From the IMG/VR virus record IMGVR_UViG_3300028886_000034, positions 54,081 to 118,080 of that record: a stretch of 64,000 nucleotides of DNA; one strand, given 5' to 3'. The number at the start of each line of letters is the position of its first letter. The first letter of the stretch is position 1. The notes beneath the pieces are model-generated. The model did no database searches and had not been told where the DNA came from. It saw only the letters and a list, made by a program, of their open reading frames with translations. Position numbers and translations under genes: made by a program. The stretch comes from a virus (lineage: Duplodnaviria > Heunggongvirae > Uroviricota > Caudoviricetes). Of the stretch, positions 1 through 54,123 are shown one piece after another.

Positions 1-93
1 TATTAGAATGTGACTGGTGGGAGAAGTATAATATTTAAAAATGTAATCTCCTAAAATGGGGAGGTCTTGGTTACATTCTACTCCCCCTAATAT

Positions 94-180
94 AGAGGGT
101 TATCCAAATTGGTTAAGGAACCTGTCTTGAAAACAGGCATACCTGAAAAGGTATTGGGAGTTCGAGTCTCCTGCCCTCTG
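94..180 (+). tRNA. tRNA-Ser (anticodon UGA), class II with long variable arm
   Basis: Hand-folded cloverleaf. The 7-bp acceptor is AGAGGGT/GCCCTCT (one G-U). The D-stem is 3 bp with a GG-containing D-loop. The anticodon stem CCTGT/ACAGG closes loop CTTGAAA. The variable arm is a 5-bp hairpin ATACC/GGTAT. The T-arm is GGGAG-TTCGAGT-CTCCT and the discriminator is G. Confidence 0.65.
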
Positions 181-251
181 TCCTAAACTTACTAAAGTAG
201 TATTAGTAAGAGTTTATAGACTTAGTATTTATTATGAGGAGGAATTTAAAC

Positions 252-389
252 ATGTTGAATTATGCGTTTACTTGGCTTACCGCTGCTAAGAATACTGTAG
301 CTGCTAATCCTATTACTTCCAGTGCAGTTCTTGTAGCTTTGCTTGTTATTATTGCTGGTGTTGTAGTTTATTTTAAGAGAGTTAAGTAA
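252..389 (+). CDS. small hydrophobic protein, 45 aa (single predicted transmembrane helix)
   Basis: ATG at 252 is preceded by GAGGAGG 9 nt upstream. The ORF is below the track cut-off. The product is MLNYAFTWLTAAKNTVAANPITSSAVLVALLVIIAGVVVYFKRVK, with a hydrophobic core and a basic C-terminus. Confidence 0.45.
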   Translation: MLNYAFTWLTAAKNTVAANPITSSAVLVALLVIIAGVVVYFKRVK

Positions 390-414
390 AAACTATTATT
401 TGGAGGTTGAAGCA

Positions 415-1068
415 ATGACTACTGAGAAGATGACTATTCATAAGGCGCTTTGTGAGGTCAAACTTGCAGATAAGAAAATTATGCAGTACACTAGTTTTAG
501 CAATAGGTATGTGGCTGTAAATAATAATCCTACTAATGATAATTTTAGAATTGATGGAATGTCAATTCAGGATTTTAGTTCTAAGGTAAGCAGTAATTAT
601 CAGGCAGTTACTGATCTGATTAGAAGAGTTGATGCTATTAAAGCTGCTATCAGTAAGTCTAATGCTGAAACCATCATTAATGTTGGTGGTAAGGAAATGA
701 CTGTTGCTGAAGCAATTTATCAGATGAAGTATGGGCTTAAGACTAAGAAAATGCTTCTTAATACTCTTCAGACTCAGCTTCAGTTTGCACAGAGTCAGCT
801 TGAAGAGGATACTAAAAAAGCTGAACAGAGACTTGAAAAAACCATTGAGACCCTGTATGGTAATAAGGATAAAACCAATATCAATACAGATGCTATCATG
901 GCCTTTAAGAAAAAGTACAATATGGAGAATCAGCCAGTTCTTATTGATCCTATTGATATTAATAAGAAGATTAACGCTCTTAGTATTGAGATTGATCAGT
1001 TTGAACTCAATGTTGATTCAGCACTTCAGGTTTCTAACGCAACTACCACTATTGAAATTGAGTACTAA
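415..1068 (+). CDS. hypothetical protein (217 aa)
   Basis: The long ORF in the track starts at TTG 400. An in-frame ATG at 415 sits 8 nt after GGAGG (402-406). No recognisable motif. Confidence 0.6.
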   Translation: MTTEKMTIHKALCEVKLADKKIMQYTSFSNRYVAVNNNPTNDNFRIDGMSIQDFSSKVSSNYQAVTDLIRRVDAIKAAISKSNAETIINVGGKEMTVAEAIYQMKYGLKTKKMLLNTLQTQLQFAQSQLEEDTKKAEQRLEKTIETLYGNKDKTNINTDAIMAFKKKYNMENQPVLIDPIDINKKINALSIEIDQFELNVDSALQVSNATTTIEIEY

Positions 1069-1664
1069 GTTTTAGTACTTAAAGATTTGATACTTGGTGA
1101 AAGTTCTAAATACTCTGTTTCATGATTTTCTGAGTATCTTATTCATGTAAAAATAAGAAAGATACTCTCCTAATATTTAGATGACCGCAAAGTTATCTAA
1201 TTATATTTTCACACCTGAAATGTGACGATATAATAACAATGCTTTTCTCTCAATTTTCCTGAGACTAGAAAGCCTTACATCTAATTTCAAATAATAGTCT
1301 TTGATTGATGACTATTTTATCTTGGATTGAGTAAGACTTTACTGAGTAGGGAGTAGTTAGTATTGTTGATTTAGTAGTTAGACCCTATGAAGAGGCTTGG
1401 TCGAACCTCACTTAAGATTTACTTAGTGAAATCACATTAGCTTTAATATAACGTAAACTCGTTCGCTAATAGTAAGTAGCTGGTAATTATTATGTAAATC
1501 TGTGAATAAAGGTCTGTACTATTTAAACAGAGTCTGAGTCTGAACATACCTCACAGCTATCAAGTATCTATATATTTTTCCGCTCATGATCGTTCTCCTT
1601 TGAAGTGGGGAGGAGTACCTCATTACTTCTCTCCACACCTAAAATTTTTTGAACAAATATTGAT

Positions 1665-1736
1665 GGGTCCATAGTTTATGTAGTAAAACAGGAGTCTCCA
1701 AAACTTCAGAACTATCTGCAAGCGGTAGTGGACCTG
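1665..1736 (+). tRNA. tRNA-like, possible tRNA-Trp (anticodon CCA), non-canonical D- and T-loops
   Basis: The 7-bp acceptor is GGGTCCA/TGGACCT, followed by G and an encoded CCA. The anticodon stem GGAGT/ACTTC closes loop CTCCAAA. The T-stem CTATC/GGTAG has an atypical TGCAAGC loop, and the D-loop lacks GG. The fold works but the conserved loop bases are missing. Confidence 0.3.
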
Positions 1737-1760
1737 CCATAAAATTTTTAAAATCACCTC

Positions 1761-1789
1761 TTGACAAATTCTTGTCAGTATGCTTTAAT
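1761..1789 (+). promoter_or_regulatory. sigma70-type promoter TTGACA-N17-TTTAAT
   Basis: The -35 TTGACA is at 1761-1766 and the -10 TTTAAT at 1784-1789, with exact 17-nt spacing. It lies upstream of the tRNA pair at 1934-2107. The same architecture recurs seven more times in the window. Confidence 0.45.
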
Positions 1790-1933
1790 ATCTTTGTTGG
1801 ACATGGTTCATAGTTTAAATAGCAAAATCTCACTGAGTAGTGTTTTCTATGTATGCTTCTAGAGCATAATTAGGAAAATGTGAAAGCTGAAGATCTTAAG
1901 TGCGAGTCTTAAGTGAACCCTTGATAATTTAAC

Positions 1934-2025
1934 TCTGGAGTAGTTTAATTGGAAAAACAGCTGACTTTGGATCAGTAAGTAAAGGGACCTCCTTTCTCAT
2001 CCTCGTTCGAATCGGGGCTCCAGAG
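1934..2025 (+). tRNA. tRNA-like with anticodon UUG (Gln) and an unusually long (24-nt) variable region; CCA encoded
   Basis: The acceptor TCTGGAG/CTCCAGA is 7 perfect bp, followed by G and CCA (2026-2028). The D-arm is GTTT/AAAC with AATTGG in its loop. The anticodon stem GCTGA/TCAGT closes loop CTTTGGA. A 24-nt insert with internal hairpin AAAGG/CCTTT precedes a canonical T-arm CCTCG-TTCGAAT-CGGGG. Confidence 0.35.
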
Positions 2026-2036
2026 CCAGTTCTAAT

Positions 2037-2107
2037 TCCTCCTTAACTCAATAGTAGAGTGGCGGTCTGTTAAACCGTATACGGTGGAGCGTAACCACCA
2101 GGAGGAG
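2037..2107 (+). tRNA. tRNA-Asn (anticodon GUU), atypical T-loop; CCA encoded
   Basis: The acceptor TCCTCCT/AGGAGGA is 7 bp, followed by G and CCA (2108-2110). The D-stem is ACTC/GAGT. The anticodon stem GCGGT/ACCGT closes loop CTGTTAA. The T-stem is GGTGG/CCACC with loop AGCGTAA. Confidence 0.4.
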
Positions 2108-2120
2108 CCATTAAAAATTA

Positions 2121-2147
2121 AATTGTAACCTAAAATGAGTTACAATT
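2121..2147 (+). terminator. perfect 9-bp hairpin (AATTGTAAC...GTTACAATT) immediately after the tRNA pair
   Basis: The inverted repeat is seen directly in the sequence and is followed by an A/T-rich tract. It could be a terminator or an RNA-processing hairpin. Confidence 0.35.
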
Positions 2148-2579
2148 AAAATCCTTTCACCCAAATCAGTGCTTGGGAAATAACAGTAAATAAAGGCTGA
2201 TCTACTTAGAAGATTGTAATGTCTTCATTTGGCATAAGTAGGATAGAAGTCTATTAGGGAATGTAACCCTCAATAAAAATTACCTTGGCTAAGGGATAGA
2301 CTTTATAAAAACTGTTAGAACCTACTACACTTGAGGTAGTAGTTATCCTATGAAACTTAATGTTGAGCCACCTTTAGTAGAAGCTAGAGCAGTGTTGAGT
2401 GGAGGATTCCGGAGAGTTGTCAGGTTACTGCAAGTGGTAAGAAACTGTCATCCTTTGATTGAAAGGGGAAAAGGATTGTAGTACATATATTACGCCCATT
2501 AAAGTCATCGAAAGTACTACACAAATGACCTATTCTTAGGGTCATGTAGATCATATAAATAAGTGAGTCAGTTTTGTAC

Positions 2580-2608
2580 TTGACAAATAACTATACTGCT
2601 GATATAAT
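2580..2608 (+). promoter_or_regulatory. sigma70-type promoter TTGACA-N17-TATAAT
   Basis: The -35 TTGACA is at 2580-2585 and a consensus -10 TATAAT at 2603-2608. It lies about 170 nt upstream of the Thr-Leu-Ile tRNA cluster. Confidence 0.5.
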
Positions 2609-2777
2609 TTTCCTGGATAAAGGTCTTCAGTAAGTAGTTATTGAAAGATCTACACCTTTTAACCATCTATCTATACTATAGCTAAGGATGGAGCACTCTC
2701 TGTTAATCAGAAGTAAAATATAGTATAGAACTTTCCTAAATCTTTTGAGTGATGTAGACTACAAATAAGATTTATTT

Positions 2778-2851
2778 GCCCCTATAGTATAACGGCTATT
2801 ATACTTCTCTTGTAAAGAAGTGATGGAAGTTCAACTCTTTTCCTAGGGGCT
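2778..2851 (+). tRNA. tRNA-Thr (anticodon UGU); CCA encoded
   Basis: The acceptor GCCCCTA/TAGGGGC is 7 bp, followed by T and CCA (2852-2854). The anticodon stem CTTCT/AGAAG closes loop CTTGTAA. The T-stem GGAAG/TTTCC has an enlarged 9-nt loop, TTCAACTCT. Confidence 0.5.
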
Positions 2852-2876
2852 CCATAAAATATAAAAATAGTTAAAT

Positions 2877-2960
2877 GCCCAGGTGGTGGAATAGGTAGAC
2901 ACAAGGGACTTAAAATCCCTTGCCATCTCTGGCGTGGGGGTTCGAGTCCCCCCCTGGGCA
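2877..2960 (+). tRNA. tRNA-Leu (anticodon UAA), class II
   Basis: The acceptor is GCCCAGG/CCTGGGC with discriminator A. The D-stem is 3 bp with a GG-containing loop. The anticodon stem AGGGA/TCCCT closes loop CTTAAAA. The variable arm is a 15-nt hairpin. The T-arm is GGGGG-TTCGAGT-CCCCC. Confidence 0.7.
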
Positions 2961-2972
2961 CCATTATTACAT

Positions 2973-3045
2973 GGACTTGTAGCTCAATTGGTAGAGTAGG
3001 CGACTTATAATCGCCAGGTTCTGGGATCATACCCCAGCGAGTCCA
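2973..3045 (+). tRNA. tRNA-Ile (anticodon UAU); CCA encoded at 3046-3048
   Basis: The acceptor is GGACTTG/CGAGTCC. The D-arm is GCTC-AATTGGTA-GAGT. The anticodon stem GGCGA/TCGCC closes loop CTTATAA. The T-stem is CTGGG/CCCAG with loop ATCATAC. The discriminator A is followed by CCA. Confidence 0.55.
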
Positions 3046-3117
3046 CCATACCTTTGACTTTTAAACTAGTTTACCTAGTTCTTACAAATATAAAACTTAT
3101 AAAAGGAGTGTTTATCA

Positions 3118-3954
3118 ATGTTTACAAAACCTCTTTTGTTGAATGGGGGGAAAGATGAGTATAAGATATACAGAATGACCTTTGCGGAAGCACAAACTTA
3201 TGATTCGACTATTAGTGTTGGGTTTGTTATTAAAAATAAATCTGAAAAATTTAAAATTGTTTTAGTTATAAATGATCGTTTAATTGGTAAACCAGCTGCG
3301 TCAGCTTACGGTACATATGGCAATGGAGACGATCCTTATTATAATACTCCTCCCGATATGGGATGGTTTGAACTAAGAGCATATTGCTCTGATCCTGACA
3401 TAGCCCATTTAGGCTCTTTTTCTATTTATTTTCCATATATCGATCAAACATTTAATTATGACGGAGAAACTTTAACCTATTATGATTATGGTGAAGATTC
3501 ATTTTATAGTATTTATTTATCAAGTAGACCGGCAGATAGCTGTTATAATCGTATAATAGATTTGTTTAACACCTATGTTAGAGAAGACAACAATGATAAC
3601 GTAAGGACCGTTGATATTTCGTATAGAGAAGGTGAAGGCAGATACAAGGGTATGGTGTTAAGGGTTAATAATATATCGGTTGGTGAAAGTGCATATGTTG
3701 AATGGGATTTTGTTCCGTATACAGTTCAACAAACTAGATATCAACTTAATTCTATAACTTTATACTATGATGAAAATCGGGTATATTCTCAGACTTATAA
3801 TAGTTTAACTGCTTCTGGAAGTTGGACAGCTCCAGACCCTGCCTCTGTAAGTGATGTTGGTGAACATACAGTCCGTATAGACTTTCGAGTAGGAATGGAT
3901 GCGTGGTGGCAGAACGAACAATACGATATTTCAAAAACATTTACAGTAACATAA
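3118..3954 (+). CDS. hypothetical protein (278 aa), Tyr/Asp-rich
   Basis: The ORF has an AAAAGGAG Shine-Dalgarno 7-8 nt upstream. No diagnostic motif. Confidence 0.7.
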   Translation: MFTKPLLLNGGKDEYKIYRMTFAEAQTYDSTISVGFVIKNKSEKFKIVLVINDRLIGKPAASAYGTYGNGDDPYYNTPPDMGWFELRAYCSDPDIAHLGSFSIYFPYIDQTFNYDGETLTYYDYGEDSFYSIYLSSRPADSCYNRIIDLFNTYVREDNNDNVRTVDISYREGEGRYKGMVLRVNNISVGESAYVEWDFVPYTVQQTRYQLNSITLYYDENRVYSQTYNSLTASGSWTAPDPASVSDVGEHTVRIDFRVGMDAWWQNEQYDISKTFTVT

Positions 3955-3978
3955 AAGAAAAGAAAGGGTGTAGTTAAT

Positions 3979-4149
3979 ATGTCTGCTAAATACTATCTTA
4001 AAACTGATGAAGGGCATAGAGTTGAGGTTTCTGAGAGCTATTTTGATTCAGTTCAGCAACTTTATGATGAATCAAGTATTTCAGCAACTGGTGATAGCTA
4101 TGGTAATGAGGAAATTGTTCTTTATGTAGACGAAGTTGATATGCCTTAA
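3979..4149 (+). CDS. small acidic protein (56 aa)
   Basis: The ATG at 3979 is preceded by a purine-rich tract, and the ORF is below the track threshold. It is co-directional and tightly spaced with its neighbours. Confidence 0.4.
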   Translation: MSAKYYLKTDEGHRVEVSESYFDSVQQLYDESSISATGDSYGNEEIVLYVDEVDMP

Positions 4150-4159
4150 GAAAGGATTG

Positions 4160-4336
4160 ATGTATAACATGACTGAATGGTATTTTACAGAAGACAGTAC
4201 AGGTACTAGAACAATGGTGAAGAAGAAGGAGTATAAAGATCTTCAGTATCAGAGATTTAAGAATAATGAAGATCCTTATCCACAGAAAGTAGATACTACT
4301 AAACATAACTTGGTAGTGCATACATTGTATGTTTGA
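4160..4336 (+). CDS. small hypothetical protein (58 aa); start uncertain (4160 or 4169)
   Basis: This is the track ORF 4136-4336. AAGGA at 4152-4156 sits 12 nt before the ATG at 4169. Confidence 0.3.
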   Translation: MYNMTEWYFTEDSTGTRTMVKKKEYKDLQYQRFKNNEDPYPQKVDTTKHNLVVHTLYV

Positions 4337-4474
4337 TGTATTCTTTTCCTGGTTATCAGGAGTATTTGATAGTTCAATAAAGTTATTGCCATATATACAA
4401 TACGTAGTTATAATTTTTATAATTGTAATGTTGATAAAAGCTTTTATTTTTGATAAAAATAAATAAGAAAGGAT

Positions 4475-5083
4475 ATGATATTTATGTTGGGTAGTTATGA
4501 GATTCATGTTGTTCCCGGTAAGCTTCCTCAGAAGGTTGCTTCCGCATTTACAGAGATTTTTGGTAATATGGTTGGTGCTGAGTATAATGTGATTGCATAC
4601 CTTGGTAGTAAGGTTGTTTCTGGAGTTAATCATGCTATTCTTGCTACACAGACCATGATTACTGGAAATGATGTTCATAATGTGGTTCTTATTGTTCTTA
4701 ATGAGAAGGATGATAAGTTCAGTATTGTGGAGATTACCAATGTCCTGTCTGACTCTGGTAAGATGGGTGGGGTTCAGATTAATCCTACTACTGATATTCC
4801 TGAAGAGGCCATGAAGGTTCTTGAGGATAATCTTGCTGGATTTGTTGGTAGTAATGTTTCAGTTTTTGCACTTATTGGTACACAGGTTGTCAATGGTGTG
4901 AAGTACGTCTTTGCTGGTGAAACAGAGATGGTGCTTTCTCCTGAGGCTATGACTAAGGGTAATCCTAACAGGGTTGTTCTTATCAGTGTGTATTCCAATT
5001 ACGATAAGATTGAATTCAAGGAGATTCTTGAAGGGGTTCCTCAGCAGGGTCTTCTTGGACAGCCTCTTGGTGAGTGGCCCTAA
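4475..5083 (+). CDS. hypothetical protein with an internal tandem duplication (202 aa)
   Basis: AAGGA lies upstream. Two halves resemble each other: GSKVVSGVNHAILATQTMITGNDVHNVVLIV and GTQVVNGVKYVFAGETEMV...NRVVLISV. Confidence 0.6.
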   Translation: MIFMLGSYEIHVVPGKLPQKVASAFTEIFGNMVGAEYNVIAYLGSKVVSGVNHAILATQTMITGNDVHNVVLIVLNEKDDKFSIVEITNVLSDSGKMGGVQINPTTDIPEEAMKVLEDNLAGFVGSNVSVFALIGTQVVNGVKYVFAGETEMVLSPEAMTKGNPNRVVLISVYSNYDKIEFKEILEGVPQQGLLGQPLGEWP

Positions 5084-5384
5084 TAATAGATAAGCATTGA
5101 CTATAGGTCTATCAGATAGACTACTTAAACTGATCATTTGAGTACTGATATTCCTATAGCCTTTTAAAGAATTAACCATAGGTCTTCGCATCTTCCAGAT
5201 AGCTTAGATACTGATCAACTAAGCAACAGACTTATAAAGCTGCGTATATTCCTATGGCTTTTTAGTTTAAAATTTAATACCTCTCAGAGGGGTGAAATTC
5301 CCCTCAAACCTTTTCTTTTTGACCTGTTTTTTCTTGATTAAAAAAGCAGAGACAATCACCCTTATATAAAGGAGACTACCCATA

Positions 5385-5921
5385 ATGAGTATGGAGAAAA
5401 CAATTAAGTTATTTGATTCAGAGTTTAAAAAAGATAGTGTCAAGATTACTCCATTTGAAGCTAGAAAGCTTTTAGAAATGGAACTAGTTTATTGGGATAG
5501 AGATCAAACCTCTCCCTATAAAGCTAGAGTTTTGGTCTTTAAGTATCCCAATCATTATTACCAATATAAAGAAAGTGGGATAACAAATATGAATATGACT
5601 ATAAATAAATGTGAAAATGTGACTAATAATGCCGAACGTTATTATCAGCCAGAAAATGTTAAGGCTATCAGGGAAACTATTGAAGCTGTAATGAAAAACG
5701 CCGGTAAAACAGATCTTAAAGATATTGACTTGGATATGCTTAGTAGTTGTATTAATGCAACTTTCAATAGAAAGAAACTGTTTTATAAATGGTTTGATGA
5801 GTATATTAATGGTAGTGATTGTTCTGAAGAAGAAAGATCTACTGCTTGTGAGTTTTTAGATTGGGTATTTCTGCATAAGATTGATGGAGATAAAACTGGG
5901 GATTTGTATTTTAAAGAGTAA
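5385..5921 (+). CDS. hypothetical protein (178 aa)
   Basis: The ORF has an AAAGGAG Shine-Dalgarno. Confidence 0.65.
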   Translation: MSMEKTIKLFDSEFKKDSVKITPFEARKLLEMELVYWDRDQTSPYKARVLVFKYPNHYYQYKESGITNMNMTINKCENVTNNAERYYQPENVKAIRETIEAVMKNAGKTDLKDIDLDMLSSCINATFNRKKLFYKWFDEYINGSDCSEEERSTACEFLDWVFLHKIDGDKTGDLYFKE

Positions 5922-5926
5922 CTAAA

Positions 5927-6001
5927 CGGGTATTAGCGCAGTCTGGTTAGCGTATCTGCTTTGGGAGCAGAGGGTCGGAGGTTCAAATCCTCCATACCCG
6001 A
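5927..6001 (+). tRNA. tRNA-Pro (anticodon UGG); CCA encoded at 6002-6004
   Basis: The acceptor CGGGTAT/ATACCCG is 7 Watson-Crick bp. The D-arm is GCGC-AGTCTGGTTA-GCGT. The anticodon stem TCTGC/GCAGA closes loop TTTGGGA. The T-arm is GGAGG-TTCAAAT-CCTCC. The discriminator A is followed by CCA. Confidence 0.75.
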
Positions 6002-6118
6002 CCATTAGAATTTAAAGTAAATATTTTAGTATAAACAGAGAGTCTAAGGAGTGGAGCAAAATCCCTCTTGACTCTCTTATTTTTTTATGGTAATATTTGT
6101 ATGGGTGGTGATTGGTAT

Positions 6119-13888: not shown

Positions 13889-16468
13889 ATGGCTTCACCA
13901 CTAACTACATATATAAGATGGTTAGCTACTGAAGGAAATGTGCCATTTCCAGAGGAATGTAAGTCTCTTAAGATTTCCTCTATTTTAAGTTTAGCTGAAG
14001 AAGATTTTGAAACATCTATTGTATTGAATCAGCTTTTCAATAATCCTTATGCGTATAAGTATTCTATTGAAGATATTGCTAAAGTACATAAGAAGTATAA
14101 CACTATTTATAAGTTTAATTATATTCCTGTTAAACCCGTGTTTCCCAAAATTGAAGAAAAACCTAAAAAGAAAGAAACTGATGTAGTTATTAATAAAAAG
14201 AGTAAATATAAATTGTATAGCTCTAAAGAGAAAGAAGATTCTAAGCCAACTGATGGGTATTCTAAGCCTATGCTGTTTAACTTCTATTCAGACTATGTGA
14301 ATAAGGAATTTGCATATGTTATTAGAGTTGGTGATAAAAGATATATTACTCAGACTGATGATATGGTTATGATGTATACCGGTAAAGATGATTATTTAGA
14401 TGTTCATGATATTGCAGGATTAAAAGGTGAACTGGTACATTATGGTAAAAGAAAATACATTATTGAACAAATTCAGTCAGAATCTTCTTATAAAGCTATT
14501 TATAATGTAGATTTTAATTTGGCTATTCATAAGAATTATCTTTGGAAAAAAGAAAACAAAGATAATCTTGGTCATTATAAACTTAGAGTAAATTATGTTG
14601 ATATTGAGTTGTATCAAGAAGGATATGGTATTATTGACTTTGCTGATATTAAGAAGTCAGCTAGAGTTATTCCCGTTAACTTGATTACTTTGTATGATAA
14701 TTATACTGACAAATATTATACTTTGGTCTATAATTTAAACAAAGCTAAAATTAATACTGAACAAATTAAGGAATATCTTGATTACAAAGATGAGTGTATT
14801 TTCAATGTAGAAATCTTTGATAAAGAAAGTGATATGTTCCTTAAGTTCTTCAGTTTATTGAAAGAATTTGATCCAGATCTAGTATCTGGGTGGAATAGTG
14901 ATGAATTTGATTTACCTTATATTAAGTATAGAGCAGAATTTTTAGGAATTGAACATCCTAAACTGGCTCATAATAAAACTTTTGAAATTGAATATAAAAC
15001 AGTTATGAATAAACATGAAGAGGAAGTTACTTATTGTATTCCTCATATTGGTTATTCTGTAGCACTTGATTATCAAAGATGCTATAAGGAAAGAACTCTT
15101 GGTAAAAAAGAGAATTATAAGCTTGGAACTATTTCTAAAATTGAGTTGGGTATTACTAAACTTGATACTGAAGATGGCATGGATAAAATCTTTAGGGAAG
15201 AACCTGAAAGGTTTATTGCATACAATATTAACGACGTTCATCTTGTAAGAAAATTGGATGAAAAGTTGAAGTATATTGACCTTAATTTTAGTATAGTCCA
15301 GTTGGCTAATATCTCATGGGATAGTATTTATACTACTCTACATATTTGTGATGGGATTCTTTATGAGTATCTTATGGATAGAGATAAAGTAGCCAAAATT
15401 GTTAAAGCTGGAATTGAGAAGAAAAAGTTTGCGGGTGCTTATGTTAGAGAACCAATTAGCGGTGTACATGATTGGTTGGGTGATTTGGATCTTACTTCTC
15501 TTTATCCATACATTATGGCAAGATATAACATTAGTGCAGATACCTATGTAGGAAAAGTTGATACAGATACTGCTAGACAATATATCTTTAATAAAGAAGA
15601 ATTTGTTAATTCCAATACAGATGTAAGTTTGTATTTGAAAGTTCAAGGTATTGAGAGATTGTATAAATTGTCTGCTAAAAGTTTTCATGAAAGAATGCTT
15701 AAGAATGGGTATATTATTACCCAGATTGGCACTATCTTTAAGAAGCATGAAGATAAGCAGTCAGTTCTTTATGATATTGTAGATATGCTCATTAAAAAGA
15801 GAAAAGAGTATAAAGATCTTATGAAGGATAATATTGGTAAAGACCAAATGCTAGTTGACAGATATGATACTATGCAGAAAACAGTTAAGATCATTACTAA
15901 TTCTCTTTATGGTGGTCAGTCCAATATTAGATTCAGATTGTATGATTATGAGGTTGCCAGAAGTATTACTTCTACTGGTAGAGAAATTGCTAAAATCGCC
16001 GCAGTAGTTGCTAATAATTGCATTAATCAAATGATTCAAAATAAATCTAATAAATTTGACCATGTAGATATTCCTTTTGATTGGGATTACCAATCAGAAC
16101 AAGCTCTACCAAATGTAATTTATGGAGATTCAGTTACTGGAGATTCTTTAATCAGAACTGGTAAAGGTAATATAACTATTAAAGAACTTTGGGATATGTG
16201 TGCTTCGGATAATAAAGTGTGGCATTATCTCGGAAAAAATTATATTCAGAATCCTAATAAATGCGTACTTGGATATGATGACAGACTTTATTTCCCAAGG
16301 TATCTGATGAAGCATAAAACTAATAAGAAACTGTATAAGATTACTACTGAATCTGGAAAAACAGTCACTGTAACTGAAGATCATAGTTTGGTAGTAATGA
16401 GAAATAATGTTAAAACTATAATTAAACCAACAGAATTAGTTGTAACAGACCAACTAATCACCTTATAA
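13889..16468 (+). CDS. family-B DNA polymerase, N-terminal gene (palm motifs A, B and first half of C) fused to an N-terminal split-intein fragment (about 112 aa)
   Basis: Pol B motif A is DLDLTSLYPYIM and motif B is KIITNSLYGG. The motif C tripeptide YGD sits at 16121-16129. It is followed directly by an intein block A (SVTGDSLIRTG...IKEL) and block B (VTVTEDHSLVV), then a stop. Confidence 0.9.
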   Translation: MASPLTTYIRWLATEGNVPFPEECKSLKISSILSLAEEDFETSIVLNQLFNNPYAYKYSIEDIAKVHKKYNTIYKFNYIPVKPVFPKIEEKPKKKETDVVINKKSKYKLYSSKEKEDSKPTDGYSKPMLFNFYSDYVNKEFAYVIRVGDKRYITQTDDMVMMYTGKDDYLDVHDIAGLKGELVHYGKRKYIIEQIQSESSYKAIYNVDFNLAIHKNYLWKKENKDNLGHYKLRVNYVDIELYQEGYGIIDFADIKKSARVIPVNLITLYDNYTDKYYTLVYNLNKAKINTEQIKEYLDYKDECIFNVEIFDKESDMFLKFFSLLKEFDPDLVSGWNSDEFDLPYIKYRAEFLGIEHPKLAHNKTFEIEYKTVMNKHEEEVTYCIPHIGYSVALDYQRCYKERTLGKKENYKLGTISKIELGITKLDTEDGMDKIFREEPERFIAYNINDVHLVRKLDEKLKYIDLNFSIVQLANISWDSIYTTLHICDGILYEYLMDRDKVAKIVKAGIEKKKFAGAYVREPISGVHDWLGDLDLTSLYPYIMARYNISADTYVGKVDTDTARQYIFNKEEFVNSNTDVSLYLKVQGIERLYKLSAKSFHERMLKNGYIITQIGTIFKKHEDKQSVLYDIVDMLIKKRKEYKDLMKDNIGKDQMLVDRYDTMQKTVKIITNSLYGGQSNIRFRLYDYEVARSITSTGREIAKIAAVVANNCINQMIQNKSNKFDHVDIPFDWDYQSEQALPNVIYGDSVTGDSLIRTGKGNITIKELWDMCASDNKVWHYLGKNYIQNPNKCVLGYDDRLYFPRYLMKHKTNKKLYKITTESGKTVTVTEDHSLVVMRNNVKTIIKPTELVVTDQLITL

Positions 16469-20753: not shown

Positions 20754-21863
20754 GTGGCTCAGTTAGAATATTGTTTGATAGACGGTAGCATTAAGAATAT
20801 TTCTGAAGTAGTGTCTGGGTTGCATAATTATATCTGCCCTATATGCGGGGAGCCTTTAGTAGCTAAAAAAGGTAATATTGTTGGTCATCATTTTTCACAT
20901 TTACCGAATAGTAAATGTCCAGCTTCAGTTTATGTTCATGGAGAGACTAATTTACATTTAGGCATGAAAAAGATTATTATGGAAACAGGCCTATGTAGGA
21001 TGCCTGAATTAGATATTGATTGGAATGGTAATATTATAAATCCTAATACGCTTAGTATGGGCACATCATATATTAGGATTAAAGAATCAAATTTTTATAA
21101 ATTTAATAAGGGTTATCTTGAAAAAAATTTAAATTGTGCTAATGGGAAATATATTAGACCCGATTTGACATGCTATGATGTTAGTTATGAGGAAATGTTT
21201 GGATTTAATAGCTCTCCATGTAGCGTGTATCTTGAAGTAACAGTAACCCATGGAGTAGATGATGTAAAACTAGATTTAATTAAATCTATAGATACTAATA
21301 ATTTTTATGTTGTAGAGTATGACTTATCTAAAGTAAATAGAGAATCTACATATGACGAATTAAAACAGGCATACTTAAGCGGCAGTATTCCATGCAATTG
21401 GATTCATAGAAGTGGTGAGAGCGACCTAGTTTGTGATAGATCTTATGAATACGCTTTTCGAGTTACAAACGGAGTTAAATGGTATGTAGATAGGTTTTAT
21501 GACAATCTAACTGATGAGGGATTAGATGCTTTAAAAGAGACTGACATTATAGAATATATGGAACAAAAGAAGTTTAAGAATATATTAGAAAATAAAAATT
21601 TTAATGGATTAGATCTAACAAGACAGTGGACATTTTTTAGAAACGAATTTCCAAGGTCGATTGTTACATCAAACGTTAATTTTTGCCCACAATTTCAGGA
21701 CTACCATATAAGGAAAAAGGCACCAGTGATGATTCAGTGCTTATCGTGTAAGCACTGTAAGAGAGCAACTTATTTTAATAGTAATAGCTATCCTAAATTT
21801 ATTATCTTATGTGAAGATAAGACAGCTCGTAATGGATATAAGGTTTTTAATAAAGCCTCTTGA
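20754..21863 (+). CDS. CoiA-like zinc-finger/nuclease family protein (369 aa), GTG start
   Basis: The N-terminal signature YICPICGEPLVAKKGNIVGHHFSHLPNSKC matches the competence CoiA family pattern CPxCx...KxG...HFxH...C. AGAGGG lies 9 nt before the GTG at 20754. Confidence 0.5.
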   Translation: MAQLEYCLIDGSIKNISEVVSGLHNYICPICGEPLVAKKGNIVGHHFSHLPNSKCPASVYVHGETNLHLGMKKIIMETGLCRMPELDIDWNGNIINPNTLSMGTSYIRIKESNFYKFNKGYLEKNLNCANGKYIRPDLTCYDVSYEEMFGFNSSPCSVYLEVTVTHGVDDVKLDLIKSIDTNNFYVVEYDLSKVNRESTYDELKQAYLSGSIPCNWIHRSGESDLVCDRSYEYAFRVTNGVKWYVDRFYDNLTDEGLDALKETDIIEYMEQKKFKNILENKNFNGLDLTRQWTFFRNEFPRSIVTSNVNFCPQFQDYHIRKKAPVMIQCLSCKHCKRATYFNSNSYPKFIILCEDKTARNGYKVFNKAS

Positions 21864-21925: not shown

Positions 21926-23410
21926 ATGCAACTTACTGCTAGTTTTAACTTTTATAGAAGACCTGGAAATGAAGAAGTATATGATTGGCTTGTAGAAGCA
22001 TGTACTGTTGCTAAGAATTTGTATAATCAGACACTGTACTATGCTTATGAGTTTAAAGAAGCTTATGACCCGGTTAGAGAACAATATAAAAAAGAAACTG
22101 GTAAGTCTTTTCCTTGGTTTCCAGACGAATACGTTGGTTTTGAAAAACCTGTCGATGATTTTTTTAAAGTAATGAGTTTGAGGAGATATGCCAGTGAACA
22201 AGATGAGAACGGTGAGTATTATACTAAAAATCTTGAGGGTAAAAGTAATTGGGAACTACTTAAAAATCTTGTAGGTAGAGATGCAACTACAGAGGTAATT
22301 AGAACATTACTATCTAAAAATTTAAAATCATATGGAAGATCCCTTGGGGATTGGAGTAGGCACCCGGAAAAATATAAAGGAATGCCAAGAAAGCCCGGTT
22401 TTTATAAAAAAGGAGATCTGTGCCCATTATACTTTTCTGGTACTTCTATTAAAATTAACTCAAAAACTAGAAGTCTTGTGTTTCCTAAGCCGAGGGGAAC
22501 GGATGGATATAATAAAAGCATTTATATCCCACTTCAAAAATTGCCACATAATTCGGAGTATGTAAAAGGAAAAAGAATTGACCAAGTTAGGATAATTCCT
22601 AAAAAAGGATATTTTAAGATTGAAATAATTTATACGTATAATGAATCGGTTCCTAAACTTGATAATAAACGATATCTTAGTATTGATTTGGGTATTAGAA
22701 ATTTTTGTACTATAATTACTAGTGATGATAAACTTAATCCAGTTATCCTTGATGGTAATGCTTTGAAATCTAAAATTAGATTTTATCATTTAATGGTAGA
22801 TAAACTTAAACATAAGATTGAAGTTATTACTGATGAAAATGGGAAGAAAAGACCTAAGCAGTATACTACTAAGAGAATTGAAGCAATGACAAAGAATCAT
22901 ATTAATCGTATAAATTATATCGTTGATGCATATACTAAGTATATTGTTAGATATTGCCTCCATTATAATATTTGTAGAGTTATTTGCGGTTGGAATAAAG
23001 ATATGAAGCAGAAGATCAATACTGGGCATAAAAATAATCAAATTATTGTTAACTTTCCTTTTAAAAAACTACTTGACAAACTCGAATATAAGTGTAAAAT
23101 GAGGGGCATAAGCTTCGAGATTGTTGAAGAGTCTTATACTAGTAAAACAGATCATCTTAGAAATGCTCCCTTGGCTACTAAAGAAGACCCTGAAACTAGA
23201 GATGAGGCTAACTTTGGTAAAAGAATTCACAGAGGATTGTTTTCTTCTGGGGTTGGAAAGTTGGTGAATGCTGATGTAAATGGCGCTATGGGTATTATGA
23301 GAAAAGCAATTCCAGATTTTAGTTGGGTTGGATACCATCCATTTCATCCAGTTAGGATGAGAGTTAAAGACGTAATTGAAGGTCTAAAGTATTCTAAATT
23401 CCCTAAATAA
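21926..23410 (+). CDS. TnpB/Cas12-like RuvC-fold protein (494 aa), candidate compact type V CRISPR effector
   Basis: The RuvC-I motif is LSIDLGIRNF (D254). A TnpB-like helix NHINRINYIVDAYTKYIV follows. The YTSK motif is EIVEESYTSKTDH and RuvC-III is NADVNGAMGI (D450). The gene lies directly upstream of a CRISPR array. No CxxC zinc finger is present, and the usual IxxEDLN position reads VICGWNKDM. Confidence 0.7.
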   Translation: MQLTASFNFYRRPGNEEVYDWLVEACTVAKNLYNQTLYYAYEFKEAYDPVREQYKKETGKSFPWFPDEYVGFEKPVDDFFKVMSLRRYASEQDENGEYYTKNLEGKSNWELLKNLVGRDATTEVIRTLLSKNLKSYGRSLGDWSRHPEKYKGMPRKPGFYKKGDLCPLYFSGTSIKINSKTRSLVFPKPRGTDGYNKSIYIPLQKLPHNSEYVKGKRIDQVRIIPKKGYFKIEIIYTYNESVPKLDNKRYLSIDLGIRNFCTIITSDDKLNPVILDGNALKSKIRFYHLMVDKLKHKIEVITDENGKKRPKQYTTKRIEAMTKNHINRINYIVDAYTKYIVRYCLHYNICRVICGWNKDMKQKINTGHKNNQIIVNFPFKKLLDKLEYKCKMRGISFEIVEESYTSKTDHLRNAPLATKEDPETRDEANFGKRIHRGLFSSGVGKLVNADVNGAMGIMRKAIPDFSWVGYHPFHPVRMRVKDVIEGLKYSKFPK

Positions 23411-23520
23411 ACAGGGGATGTATTTGGGTAAGTTTGGCAAACCCATTTAAATAAGATCATCAGAATCAGCGATGTGAATTTAAATAAAGTTAATGAAAAT
23501 TAACTGCCTCCGGATTTATT

Positions 23521-23542
23521 CGGATACGATACTTTTTATTTG
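23521..23542 (+). ncRNA. candidate tracrRNA anti-repeat
   Basis: The segment CGGATACGATACTTTTTATTTG can pair with the repeat 3' half CAAATAAGGGTATCGTAT. ATACGATA pairs with TATCGTAT (8 bp) and ATTTG pairs with CAAAT (5 bp), linked by A-U and G-U pairs. It lies between the effector gene and the array on the same strand. Confidence 0.4.
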
Positions 23543-23621
23543 TTTTTACGTATGGAAAATGCTGTTTTTTACAACTGAATATTGAATAAACTCAGTATTT
23601 GTAAGAGTTTGCGTATAGGAT

Positions 23622-24247
23622 ACTATACGGTACTTACAAATAAGGGTATCGTATAACAAAAGAAGATACAACAGACGATAAAAAAGAACTATACGGTACT
23701 TACAAATAAGGGTATCGTATAACATGATATTAAAGAGTATGCTGATTTGGGTGACTATACGGTACTTACAAATAAGGGTATCGTATAACTCTAACTATTA
23801 CTGCTATTACCTCATCATCACTATACGGTACTTACAAATAAGGGTATCGTATAACGCTATCTTCTTCCTGCATGGTCCATCACATACTATACGGTACTTA
23901 CAAATAAGGGTATCGTATAACAGTGATGTAAAAATGAAATTTAATGATGTTACTATACGGTACTTACAAATAAGGGTATCGTATAACAGACATTTTAAAC
24001 ATGAGTATTTTAGCACTATACGACACTTACAAATAAAGAGTATCGTATAACTTGACGTGCTCTTTCAGTTCTGGTATACTCACTATACGTTACTTATAAA
24101 TAAGGGTATCGTATAACTATGAGCTTTTGGAGTAGTGGAATTGTTTTACCATGTGGACTTACAAATAAGAATATCGTATAATTGATACCTGATTAGTATT
24201 GTATTGCCCATACTATACAGGACCTACAAATAAGAATATTGTGTAAT
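23622..24247 (+). CRISPR. CRISPR array with 10 repeats (35-36 nt; consensus A-CTATACGGTACTTACAAATAAGGGTATCGTATAAC) and 9 unique spacers of about 28-31 nt
   Basis: Repeats begin at 23623, 23689, 23755, 23821, 23887, 23953, 24016, 24083, about 24149 and 24213. The first six are identical and the last four are progressively degenerate. The AT-rich leader is therefore at the 5' side (23410-23620). Confidence 0.85.
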
Positions 24248-24249
24248 TA

Positions 24250-24278
24250 TTGACAAAGTATGCCGAGTCTGATAGAAT
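24250..24278 (+). promoter_or_regulatory. sigma70-type promoter TTGACA-N17-TAGAAT
   Basis: The -35 is at 24250-24255 and the -10 at 24273-24278. It abuts the last degenerate repeat and precedes the intein-C/polymerase gene. Confidence 0.5.
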
Positions 24279-24301
24279 CATTATATGGGTGGTGAAGGAA
24301 A

Positions 24302-25297
24302 ATGAAGATAGAGAGTGTTAAATCAATAGAAGTGATTACTCCAGAAGAACCTATTGATGTATATGATATTGAAATGCCAGATGATGATCATTGTTTTTTT
24401 GCAAATGACATATTAGTTCATAATACAGATTCAATTTTTACTAAATATGGCGATGCATTGAAAGCAATTTATGGAAAAGATTATGATGAAATTTCTGACA
24501 AGGAAAAGATAGATAAAGTTATTGAATTGAATGAATCTGTAGCACAGTATATTAATAATGTAATGATTCATGAACTTCTTAATATGCATAATACATCTCC
24601 TACAGAATCTTCGGCTAAAAAGTTTAACTTTAATTTTAAACAGGAACTTGTTATTAGAAGAGCTTTGTTTCTGGAAATCAAAAAGAAGTATGCTATTTGG
24701 TTAGTTTCCAAAGAAGGAAAGCCTTTGGATAAAATCAGTATTAGTGGTATAGAAGTTGTAAGATCTGATTATCCTCAATTTAGCAGAGATATGTTAAATG
24801 ATTTTATTGAGCATATCCTTAAGAAAGGAATCAGTAAAGAAGAGCTTACCACTAAGATTGATGATTATAGAGGTAGATATGTTGAGCAGTTAAAAACAGG
24901 TACAGTTTATTGTGCTATTCCAAGTTCTTGGAATAAAGAAAACTATGCCCAAGATAGACTGCCAAGATCAGTTAAATCTATGTTGGTATATAATGCAATT
25001 TATGGAAGTACCTTTAGAGTAATGGATAGAGGCTATAGATTTGACTTGGAAGAAATTGATATAGGTCAATTTGATTCAGATACACAAAGACGCTTGACAG
25101 ATTTAGTTCGATCTGGTACAATGGGTAAAGAAGGTAAGTTAGATTGTATTACTATTCCTACTAATGGTACATTAGATTTAACTAAGTTTAGAATTAATTA
25201 TAATAAAATGCAAGAATTTGCAGTTGATGATCGTATTTCTAATTTTTGTGATATCTTTGGGATTAAAGTTGATGATCCTAATGATATAGGTTGGTAG
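24302..25297 (+). CDS. C-terminal split-intein fragment (about 41 aa) fused to the C-terminal part of family-B DNA polymerase (rest of motif C plus thumb)
   Basis: The intein blocks F/G end in VYDIEMPDDDHCFFANDILVHN. The C-extein follows immediately and starts TDSIFTKYGD, which completes YGD|TDS. The KKRY-type motif EIKKKYAIW lies downstream. An AAGGA Shine-Dalgarno precedes the gene. Confidence 0.85.
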   Translation: MKIESVKSIEVITPEEPIDVYDIEMPDDDHCFFANDILVHNTDSIFTKYGDALKAIYGKDYDEISDKEKIDKVIELNESVAQYINNVMIHELLNMHNTSPTESSAKKFNFNFKQELVIRRALFLEIKKKYAIWLVSKEGKPLDKISISGIEVVRSDYPQFSRDMLNDFIEHILKKGISKEELTTKIDDYRGRYVEQLKTGTVYCAIPSSWNKENYAQDRLPRSVKSMLVYNAIYGSTFRVMDRGYRFDLEEIDIGQFDSDTQRRLTDLVRSGTMGKEGKLDCITIPTNGTLDLTKFRINYNKMQEFAVDDRISNFCDIFGIKVDDPNDIGW

Positions 25298-53260: not shown

Positions 53261-54123
53261 TACTTTAGTAAATCGCCGCCAACATCTACTATATCTTCAG
53301 CTTTATTACTTCTAGTTGTATTGAGCATAAATAAGATACTTAATAACCATCCCTTTATAATAGATATAAAGCCTAAAAATATACCTGAAACCATAGCCCC
53401 TATTGCTAATGGAGTATATGATTTATCAGCAAGATATTGTAGTGCAGCATCGCTGTTAGGTATTCCTAATGCACCAAATAATCCACTAAATCTAGCCTTT
53501 GCAAATTCTGAAGCACTAAATCCACCGGCTTTTAATGAAGCGTATCCTAATAAAAAAGGTATTAATGTTATGACGACAAATATTAGCATTGAGCTTAAAG
53601 TAAATAATATAGGGTGCTTAACGGTTTTTCGAATATAGGAGTTTAATTTAGATACTTTGTTTTGCCCGATTATCTTCCAATATAAAAATCTTGTCATAAC
53701 TCCCCAAGCCAAAATCCAGCTAACAATTTTACCTCTTCCTGCCTCTCTATTCATAGAGTAGGTTATCCAAGATGCTTCAATACATCCAACTCTAAACTCT
53801 TCTGGTAAATTTTTAGAAGAAAATTTTTTACGAAGATTTTTATCTATAAGCTTTTTAATTTCTTCATCATTATCAGTATTTCGAATCTTATTAACATCCT
53901 GCATCCATTCGCTATCGTTAATTCCAGGAGTTTGTTTTGATGCTTTAGAAAGCTTTTTTAGTCCATCTGTACAGAGTTTTTTAATTGAATCCATTGTTGT
54001 GCCTTCTGAAAAATTCTGACTATAAAACTTTATAGCTCTGTTTAGATTTTCAGCATTATCTATATATGGAAATTTATTAGTATAATTATCATATACTTCT
54101 TTTAATATAAGTTTTTTATTCAT
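53260..54123 (-). CDS. membrane-anchored protein, paralog family member 1 (287 aa)
   Basis: It shares an N-terminal region with 55775 and 57052: KFPYID..., KKLCTDGLKKLSK, NLPEEF.VGCIE..WITY..NREAGRGK.VS.ILAW.V..RF.Y.K, then hydrophobic helices. Confidence 0.6.
   Translation of the reverse strand: MNKKLILKEVYDNYTNKFPYIDNAENLNRAIKFYSQNFSEGTTMDSIKKLCTDGLKKLSKASKQTPGINDSEWMQDVNKIRNTDNDEEIKKLIDKNLRKKFSSKNLPEEFRVGCIEASWITYSMNREAGRGKIVSWILAWGVMTRFLYWKIIGQNKVSKLNSYIRKTVKHPILFTLSSMLIFVVITLIPFLLGYASLKAGGFSASEFAKARFSGLFGALGIPNSDAALQYLADKSYTPLAIGAMVSGIFLGFISIIKGWLLSILFMLNTTRSNKAEDIVDVGGDLLK

Follow-up and report, generated by a model that had tools for sequence, protein, structure and literature searches.

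A putative tracrRNA with a bipartite anti-repeat between a TnpB-like effector gene and a CRISPR array in a phage genome

Does the short region between a TnpB-like effector gene and its CRISPR array encode a tracrRNA (trans-activating CRISPR RNA)? This question is raised by a stretch of 64,000 nucleotides (nt) from a virus of the Caudoviricetes (IMG/VR virus record IMGVR_UViG_3300028886_000034, positions 54,081 to 118,080). The whole 64-kb stretch is called here the window; locus coordinates follow its numbering, and L-numbers denote related contigs. On its plus strand, the effector open reading frame (ORF), a gap of 211 nt and the array follow one another (Table 1). A preliminary description, made from the letters of the DNA, had placed a candidate anti-repeat, CGGATACGATACTTTTTATTTG, at 23521-23542, between the effector stop (23410) and repeat 1 (23622), and these coordinates are exact. 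It had also read the locus as a tracrRNA-dependent type V system, and this is supported by the complementarity to the repeat, by co-variation across lineages, by co-folding and by the TnpB/Cas12f fold of the effector. With a probability of roughly 80%, 23398-23570 (+) would encode a tracrRNA of ~160-175 nt, in which the stem-loops S0-S4 are followed by a bipartite anti-repeat that pairs with the precursor CRISPR RNA (pre-crRNA).

Regarding the anti-repeat itself, the preliminary description had given perfect blocks of 8 and 5 base pairs (bp), joined by A-U and G-U pairs and one bulge. The complementarity, the G-U pairs and the bulge hold, but the blocks are actually longer, with 9 and 8 nt. 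ATACGATAC (23524-23532) is the exact reverse complement of the repeat segment GTATCGTAT and, past one bulged T, TTATTTGT (23536-23543) is the exact complement of ACAAATAA, with two G-U pairs sitting between both blocks. Moreover, the pairing extends past the interval first reported: after a 5-nt U-rich linker, CGTATGG (23549-23555) faces the 5' end of the repeat, CTATACG. The U-rich tract formerly described as following the anti-repeat (TTTGTTTTTAC) is real, although it is not a 3' tail but this linker inside the bipartite element. Repeat nt 2-34 of 36 are thus spanned by 23524-23555 (+) in two blocks, named AR1 and AR2, with a predicted RNA duplex energy of -28.2 kcal/mol.

This value was not reached by any of 2000 dinucleotide shuffles of the leader (mean of -14.9 ± 2.6 kcal/mol), nor by any of 1256 other 211-nt segments taken from both strands of the 64 kb (best, -24.5 kcal/mol), and in a finer scan of the 64 kb no sequence outside the array paired better with the repeat than this element. 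The 20-mer of AR1 has one other match in the window at ≤3 mismatches, where 0.02 would be expected, and this match is the antisense of repeat 7. That repeat (24015-24051) is a degenerate unit of 37 nt, ACAAATAAAGAGTATCGTAT, complementary to AR1 at 19 of 20 positions and, unlike the consensus repeat, with no need of a bulge; the anti-repeat may perhaps keep its pairing to an older version of the repeat.

The clade to which the effector belongs is very rare. A search over 5.8 billion protein clusters gave five clusters (90% identity) that are 99, 85, 80, 77 and 52% identical to the window protein, all other matches being ordinary TnpBs of ~410 amino acids (aa) and ≤40% identity. No further members closer than 40% identity were found in IMG/VR, in the JGI metagenomes or in a second protein search, and in the GTDB genomes a repeat-pattern scan yielded L137 alone, which has the L001-type locus in full length. 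In L001-L007 and L137 the array lies just downstream of the effector in all cases. According to the repeat, four independent lineages are distinguished: the window, L001/L003/L137, L002 and L004.

Where the preliminary description had allowed for relatives with a plain leader only, the three other lineages (L001/L003/L137, L002 and L004) carry an anti-repeat matching their own repeat. The repeat is CCTATACGATACCCTAAAATACAGGTATCGTAGGAC in L001/L003/L137 and CCTATACGATACCTTTAAATAAGAGGTACGTATAGC in L002, while that of L004 (CATTCTTCCGTATACGTAGGGATGATCC, 28 nt) is unrelated to the others, barely palindromic and able to form only a weak hairpin (-6.5 kcal/mol). The anti-repeat of L001 reads CTACGATACC...CGTATAGG, and its AR2 equivalent sets CGUAUAGG against CCUAUACG. 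The leader element of L002 is a nearly full-length inverted copy of the repeat, with GGUAUCG against CGAUACC as the AR2 equivalent, and L004 has ACGTAT-CGGAAGAATG, with an exact core of 10 nt. When the four leaders were compared with the four repeats, the own pair was the strongest in every row of the matrix (-27.8 to -32.2 kcal/mol, z of -4.2 to -5.7) and exceeded every foreign pair by at least 3.9 kcal/mol. The position of the anti-repeat is also constant across lineages, immediately 3' of stem S4. Between the window and L001, the repeat changes from ...CGTATA to ...CGTAGG and the anti-repeat from ATACG to CTACG, the T-to-G substitution at nt 33 of the repeat being matched by A-to-C in the anti-repeat. 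Furthermore, a one-base deletion in the 3' arm of the L002 repeat is mirrored in the AR1 of L002. Since the anti-repeat changes in step with the repeat in these relatives, the leader element is very probably the pairing arm of a tracrRNA.

Effectors of the TnpB/Cas12f class need a long structured guide scaffold. Directly 5' of the anti-repeat, the RNAalifold consensus of four sequences shows five stem-loops, S0-S4 (23398-23523), and 13 of its 42 pairs present double-sided compensatory changes. S0 is equivalent to UUCCA/UGGAA in L001, UCCC/GGGA in L002 and GCGCU/AGCGC in L004. The outer stem of S2 changes from A-U to G-C in L001/L003 and from U-A to C-G in L002, and its inner stem from AUC/GAU to ACC/GGU in L002. 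S3 is closed by U-A in the window and by C-G in the other lineages, with a GNRA-type hairpin in two lineages, and S4 corresponds to CCGUA/UACGG in L001, CCAUA/UAUGG in L002 and CCGGGU/ACCCGG in L004. In L004 the stems come in the same order but differ in sequence, one extra hairpin is inserted, and a 10-bp hairpin occupies the place equivalent to S3. The co-folding check proposed in the preliminary description gave the expected outcome: the predicted tracrRNA and crRNA (repeat plus spacer) form the duplex between anti-repeat and repeat with the upstream stems intact. Compared with folding the two RNAs apart, this gains a net -6.5 to -16 kcal/mol in the four lineages.

Table 1. Features of the effector, putative tracrRNA and array region (window numbering)
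Feature	Position	Strand	Details
Effector gene, TnpB-family miniature type V nuclease	21926..23410	+	494 aa; family models, fold, RuvC triad
Promoter-like site in the effector ORF, candidate start of a tracrRNA precursor	23073..23100	+	TTGACA-16-TAAAAT, 11/12 consensus positions
Stem S0	23398..23419	+	Loop holds the effector stop codon; AUUCCCU/AGGGGAU in the window
Stem S1	23426..23444	+	GGGU/ACCC in the window, AGGCU/AGCCU in L001/L003; compensatory pairs (RNAalifold)
Stem S2	23445..23485	+	Outer stem AUUUAAAU/AUUUAAAU plus inner stem
Stem S3	23488..23505	+	GUUAAU GAAA AUUAAC; kept in all lineages
Stem S4	23510..23523	+	CCGGA UUUA UUCGG; abuts the anti-repeat
Anti-repeat block AR1	23524..23543	+	Pairs with repeat nt 16-34; 19 pairs and one bulged U (duplexfold)
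Anti-repeat block AR2	23549..23555	+	CGUAUGG pairs with CUAUACG, repeat nt 2-8
T-run, possible 3' end of the tracrRNA	23565..23570	+	TTTTTTAC motif kept in the window, L001, L002 and L003
Second short complement to the repeat loop	23590..23608 (match 23596-23605)	+	TATTTGTAAG against CTTACAAATA, 10/10; 16 nt upstream of repeat 1
CRISPR array	23622..24247	+	10 repeats of 36 nt (ACTATACGGTACTTACAAATAAGGGTATCGTATAAC), spacers of 29-31 nt; repeats 7-10 degenerate

In the mechanism that we infer for transcription, RNA ends, processing, tracrRNA dependence of cleavage and targets, the effector ORF would run on at its 3' end straight into the tracrRNA, and effector and array would share one direction of transcription. 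AR1 would then pair with the 3' 19 nt of the repeat, on the spacer side, and AR2 with its 5' end, opening the hairpin of the repeat. The scaffold, the duplex and the spacer RNA could thereby make up a two-piece counterpart of the TnpB omegaRNA or right-end RNA (reRNA), or of the Cas12f single-guide RNA (sgRNA), and load the 494-aa TnpB-like RuvC nuclease for spacer-guided DNA cleavage. The RNA might be processed from the effector mRNA, arise at the internal promoter-like site and/or be matured by host RNase III acting on the duplex. Being phage-borne and without adaptation genes, the locus probably acts against competing mobile elements. No protospacers were found for the spacers of all arrays in the window, in all the fetched loci or in GenBank phages, nor for the one spacer that was searched against IMG/VR.

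Several observations weigh against this assignment. The co-variation comes from only four independent lineages, three of them related, and homology of the scaffold to an omegaRNA or Rfam family was not detected. Scanned against Rfam, neither 22800-24400 (E up to 10) nor 12 related loci gave anything relevant, RAGATH-18 (the IS607 omegaRNA family) being absent. The covariance model R1, built on four sequences from S0 to AR2, found only its own clade and missed L004 and every TnpB relative bar L024, whose weak match (E of 0.1) was treated as chance. Regarding the RNA ends, inspection by eye gave no matching T-run after the L004 anti-repeat, and neither a hairpin-type terminator nor a convincing intergenic promoter was detected. 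S0 spans the stop codon, which must put the 5' end of the RNA inside the ORF, so the RNA would have to start there or be cut from the effector mRNA. TnpB processes omegaRNA out of its own mRNA, as stated in the background of a preprint (bioRxiv 10.64898/2026.03.27.714800). The promoter-like site is identical in all five lineages, but it lies in a strongly conserved coding stretch and its conservation alone is therefore no proof of a promoter function.

The repeat adds further points of the same kind. It self-folds with -12 to -15 kcal/mol in three lineages, as repeats do in crRNA-only systems, and the pairing of one repeat with another on the same strand (-27.1 kcal/mol) is almost equal to that of the anti-repeat. 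As the repeat is palindromic, energy alone can't separate an anti-repeat from a degenerate direct repeat. The alignments settle the orientation as an anti-repeat: in the window the inverted local alignment, which takes in the non-palindromic loop, scores 23 and the direct one 17, and in the other lineages these scores are 22/18, 36/18 and 27/10. The L004 repeat is hardly palindromic, so the inverted reading is unambiguous there. The comparison of strands is not uniform, since the plus-strand duplex is favoured in the window through its G-U pairs (-28.2 against -20.4 kcal/mol for the minus strand), whereas L001 and L002 show this preference weakly and L004 shows the opposite (-30.3 for the minus strand against -28.0 for the plus strand). 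Given this mixed result, the orientation rests mainly on the effector direction, the scaffold and the degenerate end of the array. That the degenerate units are the distal ones puts the leader and the start of transcription on the effector side, and argues for transcription in the direction of the ORF.

Other explanations of the leader element have to be weighed as well. The palindromic repeat, which in the window folds into a hairpin of 10-12 bp (-12.8 kcal/mol), could be the handle of a crRNA-only system such as those of Cas12a, Cas12j and Cas-lambda, and the element a non-functional relic, such as an inverted degenerate repeat or a remnant of the terminal hairpin of an ancestral omegaRNA. 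The presence in the element of ATACG.TACTT, from the 5' arm of the repeat, in direct orientation at 10 of 11 positions would suit such a relic. Nevertheless, a relic would not keep pace with the substitutions and indels that the repeat has undergone in four lineages, and L004 combines a weak repeat hairpin with an anti-repeat that has an exact 10-nt core. In addition, the five stems with compensatory changes stand directly upstream of the element, and among the closest structural neighbours there is no known precedent of a crRNA-only system with a 494-aa effector of TnpB fold, which makes this explanation improbable. The location of the element in the leader would also be compatible with a cis-acting element of the leader or 3' untranslated region, which could stabilise or terminate the effector mRNA at its 3' end or act as a signal in integrating spacers or transcribing the array. 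A weak hairpin can form between AR1 and AR2 (5 bp, RNAalifold), followed by an A-rich stretch and the T-run, and the wholly different spacers of the window and L005-L007 indicate that some acquisition process acts on this leader. However, that hairpin is weak and none was noted for the L004 anti-repeat, where no dedicated test was made, no terminator-like site was detected, and integration signals normally adjoin repeat 1 instead of lying 65 nt upstream and inverted. A cis-acting role would moreover leave the continued complementarity to the repeat without explanation, and is very improbable.

A further arrangement would keep the scaffold and the anti-repeat joined to the array transcript as one long omega-like guide in cis, folding on repeat 1, so that only spacer 1 would be used. 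TnpB omegaRNAs are single molecules, the distance from AR2 to repeat 1 is only ~65 nt and in L004 there is no T-run in between, all of which would favour it. On the other hand, the T-run at 23565-23570, conserved in the window, L001, L002 and L003, parts the two segments, and the maintenance of arrays of 7-10 units with intact proximal repeats points to a use beyond spacer 1; this arrangement is the most improbable of the three. Even added together, these explanations are unlikely, and none of them accounts for the lasting complementarity to a changing repeat on a conserved scaffold. The tracrRNA with a bipartite anti-repeat is therefore the preferred reading.

The leader holds another short complement to the repeat, in this case to its loop (Table 1), and the motif GTATTT(G/T)TA within it is kept in L001 and L002. 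As a second anti-repeat this candidate was rejected because the motif does not track the own repeat of L002, and it is more likely to be a leader or promoter motif.

The effector passes the curated threshold of the NCBIfam guided_TnpB model (112.9 bits, cutoff of 100) and matches Pfam Cas12f1-like_TNB (1.3e-9). The NCBIfam CRISPR_Cas12f2 model failed (37.4 bits against a cutoff of 450), and the PADLOC Cas12f and Cas12u3 models gave weak matches only (1e-9 to 3e-12). It is a single split-RuvC effector with an array starting 211 nt downstream, as is characteristic of type V. In an alignment of 51 sequences the D-E-D triad of RuvC is intact, with D254, E401/E402 and D450 invariant. The four zinc-finger cysteines of the TNB region are absent, with no Cys between E402 and D450 (SKTDHLRN...RGLFSSGVGK), and the nearest TnpB relatives likewise lack them in the consensus of this alignment. 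A fold search was used because sequence searches of the PDB yielded little: the single effector sequence found nothing, and a profile of five sequences found only a dCas12f entry (2e-5). The AlphaFold2 model (pLDDT of 84) has the AsCas12f chains as its best PDB match in Foldseek (E of 1e-16, TM of 0.57/0.66), and thus a Cas12f-like fold. These chains are followed by CnCas12f, ISFba1 TnpB and ISDra2 TnpB, and the top structural neighbours were all solved with sgRNA or omega/reRNA bound.

The 3' third of the effector gene (22960-23350, codons ~346-475) shows unusual conservation of its nucleotides. Matches at third-codon positions amount to 73-85% there versus ~61% upstream, and the L004 protein, with 52% identity to that of the window overall, yet reaches ~90% within these codons. 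The N-terminal WED/REC half of the effector diverges together with the guide scaffold. The conserved third could be due to recombination, or to an RNA or promoter function overlapping the ORF.

Around the locus, no cas1, cas2 or cas4 was found among the ORFs scanned on both sides (13.9-28.8 kb), which are phage replication genes. The effectors of the window and of L005-L007 are 99% identical and their leaders nearly identical, but they have no spacer in common (23658-23951 versus 7733-7961 of L005, the same in L006 and L007). Hence, the spacers turn over quickly, though no adaptation genes are seen nearby. The contigs related to the window include a rumen-labelled genome bin.

The family-B DNA polymerase (PolB) of this phage is encoded by two genes, one for the N-terminal part (13889-16468), which ends with an intein N-terminal splicing domain (aa 760-857), and another for the C-terminal part (24302-25297), which starts with an intein C-terminal fragment (aa 4-41, ...ILVHNT). 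The ~7.8 kb between both halves hold some twelve genes, among them ThyX and the TnpB-CRISPR cassette, and the gene for the intein C-terminal fragment and PolB C-terminal part is also located 3' of the array in L002, L004 and L137. The arrangement resembles a natural split intein whose gap has filled with cargo. The interval between thyX and the effector is variable: in the window (20754-21863) it encodes a protein of 369 aa whose N-terminal zinc-ribbon domain is CoiA-like, and in L003 (2726-4501) and L005-L007 (4498-5915 in L005) an HNH endonuclease and two small ORFs. The ThyX of L003 has 591 aa and a faint LAGLIDADG match, which may indicate an intein. Farther away, the window has a cluster of seven tRNAs (93-6004), two of them unusually long (94-95 nt). 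One tRNA (1827-1920) has a CTA anticodon and is labelled tRNA-Pyl by ARAGORN; a suppressor tRNA of this kind suggests that part of the phage genome recodes TAG.

Concerning the origin of the locus, the IS607 TnpB relatives (L011, at ~4174-4224, and L016, L019, L063 and L067) end ~50 nt past the stop with a conserved tail, (A)CTTAYAAATAA-TTTTTAA...TTAATAAAAATTAGAACAT. The segment ACTTACAAATAA of the L011 tail has a 12-nt identity with the centre of the window repeat, which may reflect an origin of the repeat from an omegaRNA 3' end or else be chance in AT-rich sequence. It is conceivable, albeit doubtful, that the locus represents an undescribed and independent transition from IS607 TnpB to CRISPR in a small group of phages, where the scaffold would have been built downstream of the ORF instead of deriving from an omegaRNA embedded in it, the repeat would come from the 3'-terminal segment of the omegaRNA, and the cassette would sit in the gap of the split-intein polymerase with spacer turnover but no adaptation genes of its own. 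A more distant locus, L036 (472-1809), encodes a TnpB-like protein of 445 aa, 29% identical and also without the zinc-finger cysteines, next to an array of six units at 1871-2230. Its 36-nt repeat has ACAAAATAGGGATAG in common with the window repeat, and the tail of its ORF overlaps the pre-array region. The best anti-repeat pairing in L036 (-18.2 kcal/mol) was reached by 71 of 500 shuffles, was not significant and was not used as support.

These results provide a concrete and testable guide-RNA design for a zinc-finger-less RuvC nuclease of 494 aa, in which the scaffold (23398-23523) is combined with the bipartite anti-repeat and the 3' portion of the repeat, and the natural co-variation over four lineages already marks which pairs matter. 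They also add a phage-borne, IS607-derived case to the recent view that type V systems emerged repeatedly through the splitting of a transposon guide RNA into tracrRNA and crRNA. As this principle was known before, the value lies in a new, well-documented case and possibly in a compact editor, and not in a new mechanism.

How, then, does this locus compare with known systems? TranC (Jin et al., Cell 2025) comprises effectors of TnpB lineage in which the reRNA has become functionally divided between tracrRNA and crRNA, as later work describes (bioRxiv 10.64898/2026.03.27.714800; PMC13565253), and TranC proteins have ~300-600 aa (bioRxiv 10.1101/2025.09.28.678669). The locus resembles TranC in its compact effector that scores as TnpB and has transposon TnpBs, here of IS607 type, as nearest relatives, in its short downstream array of 36-nt repeats without adaptation genes nearby, in an anti-repeat between effector and array preceded by a scaffold of 120-200 nt, and in being phage-borne, as some TranC systems are. 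Sequence homology of the tracrRNA to the omegaRNA of the IS607 relatives was not detected. LaTranC is only the 45th among the fold matches (TM of 0.44), so the effector is not of the LaTranC clade.

The type V-F Cas12f (Cas14) systems (AsCas12f, Un1Cas12f1), with guides of tracrRNA and crRNA, have in common with this locus the fold, the size class, the downstream array and a tracrRNA encoded beside the effector. No cas1 or cas2 lies nearby, and many Cas12f loci need none. In the Un1Cas12f1 structures, the repeat pairs with the tracrRNA in two separate segments. However, sequence identity to Cas12f is ~14%, the Cas12f2 model failed, the TNB zinc-finger cysteines are missing, and sequence places the effector with the IS607 TnpBs.

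These IS607 TnpBs (OMEGA) are the closest outside its own clade by sequence (36-40% identity), with the same cysteine-less TNB region and RuvC triad, and their guide RNA is also encoded at and past the 3' end of the gene. The differences lie in the context. No transposase was seen close to the effector and no resolvase homologue in the window or in L001-L007/L137, whereas a serine recombinase is directly upstream of the TnpB relative P0006 and homologues of it are present in 43 fetched loci, directly upstream of tnpB where inspected. Besides, a transposon end is lacking here, and where the relatives have one flanking guide the locus has an array of several spacers. The effector is ~80 aa longer, and the 211 nt of structured RNA contrast with the ~50 nt that follow the stop in the relatives.

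Finally, the candidate subtypes V-U6 to V-U45 are independent transitions from TnpB to Cas12, many of them known from metagenomes only (Altae-Tran et al. 2023, PMC10691335). The locus is like them in its downstream array and the lack of other cas genes, a likeness at the level of the whole class. Judged on these features, it fits the transposon-derived miniature type V class represented by TranC and the V-U candidates.

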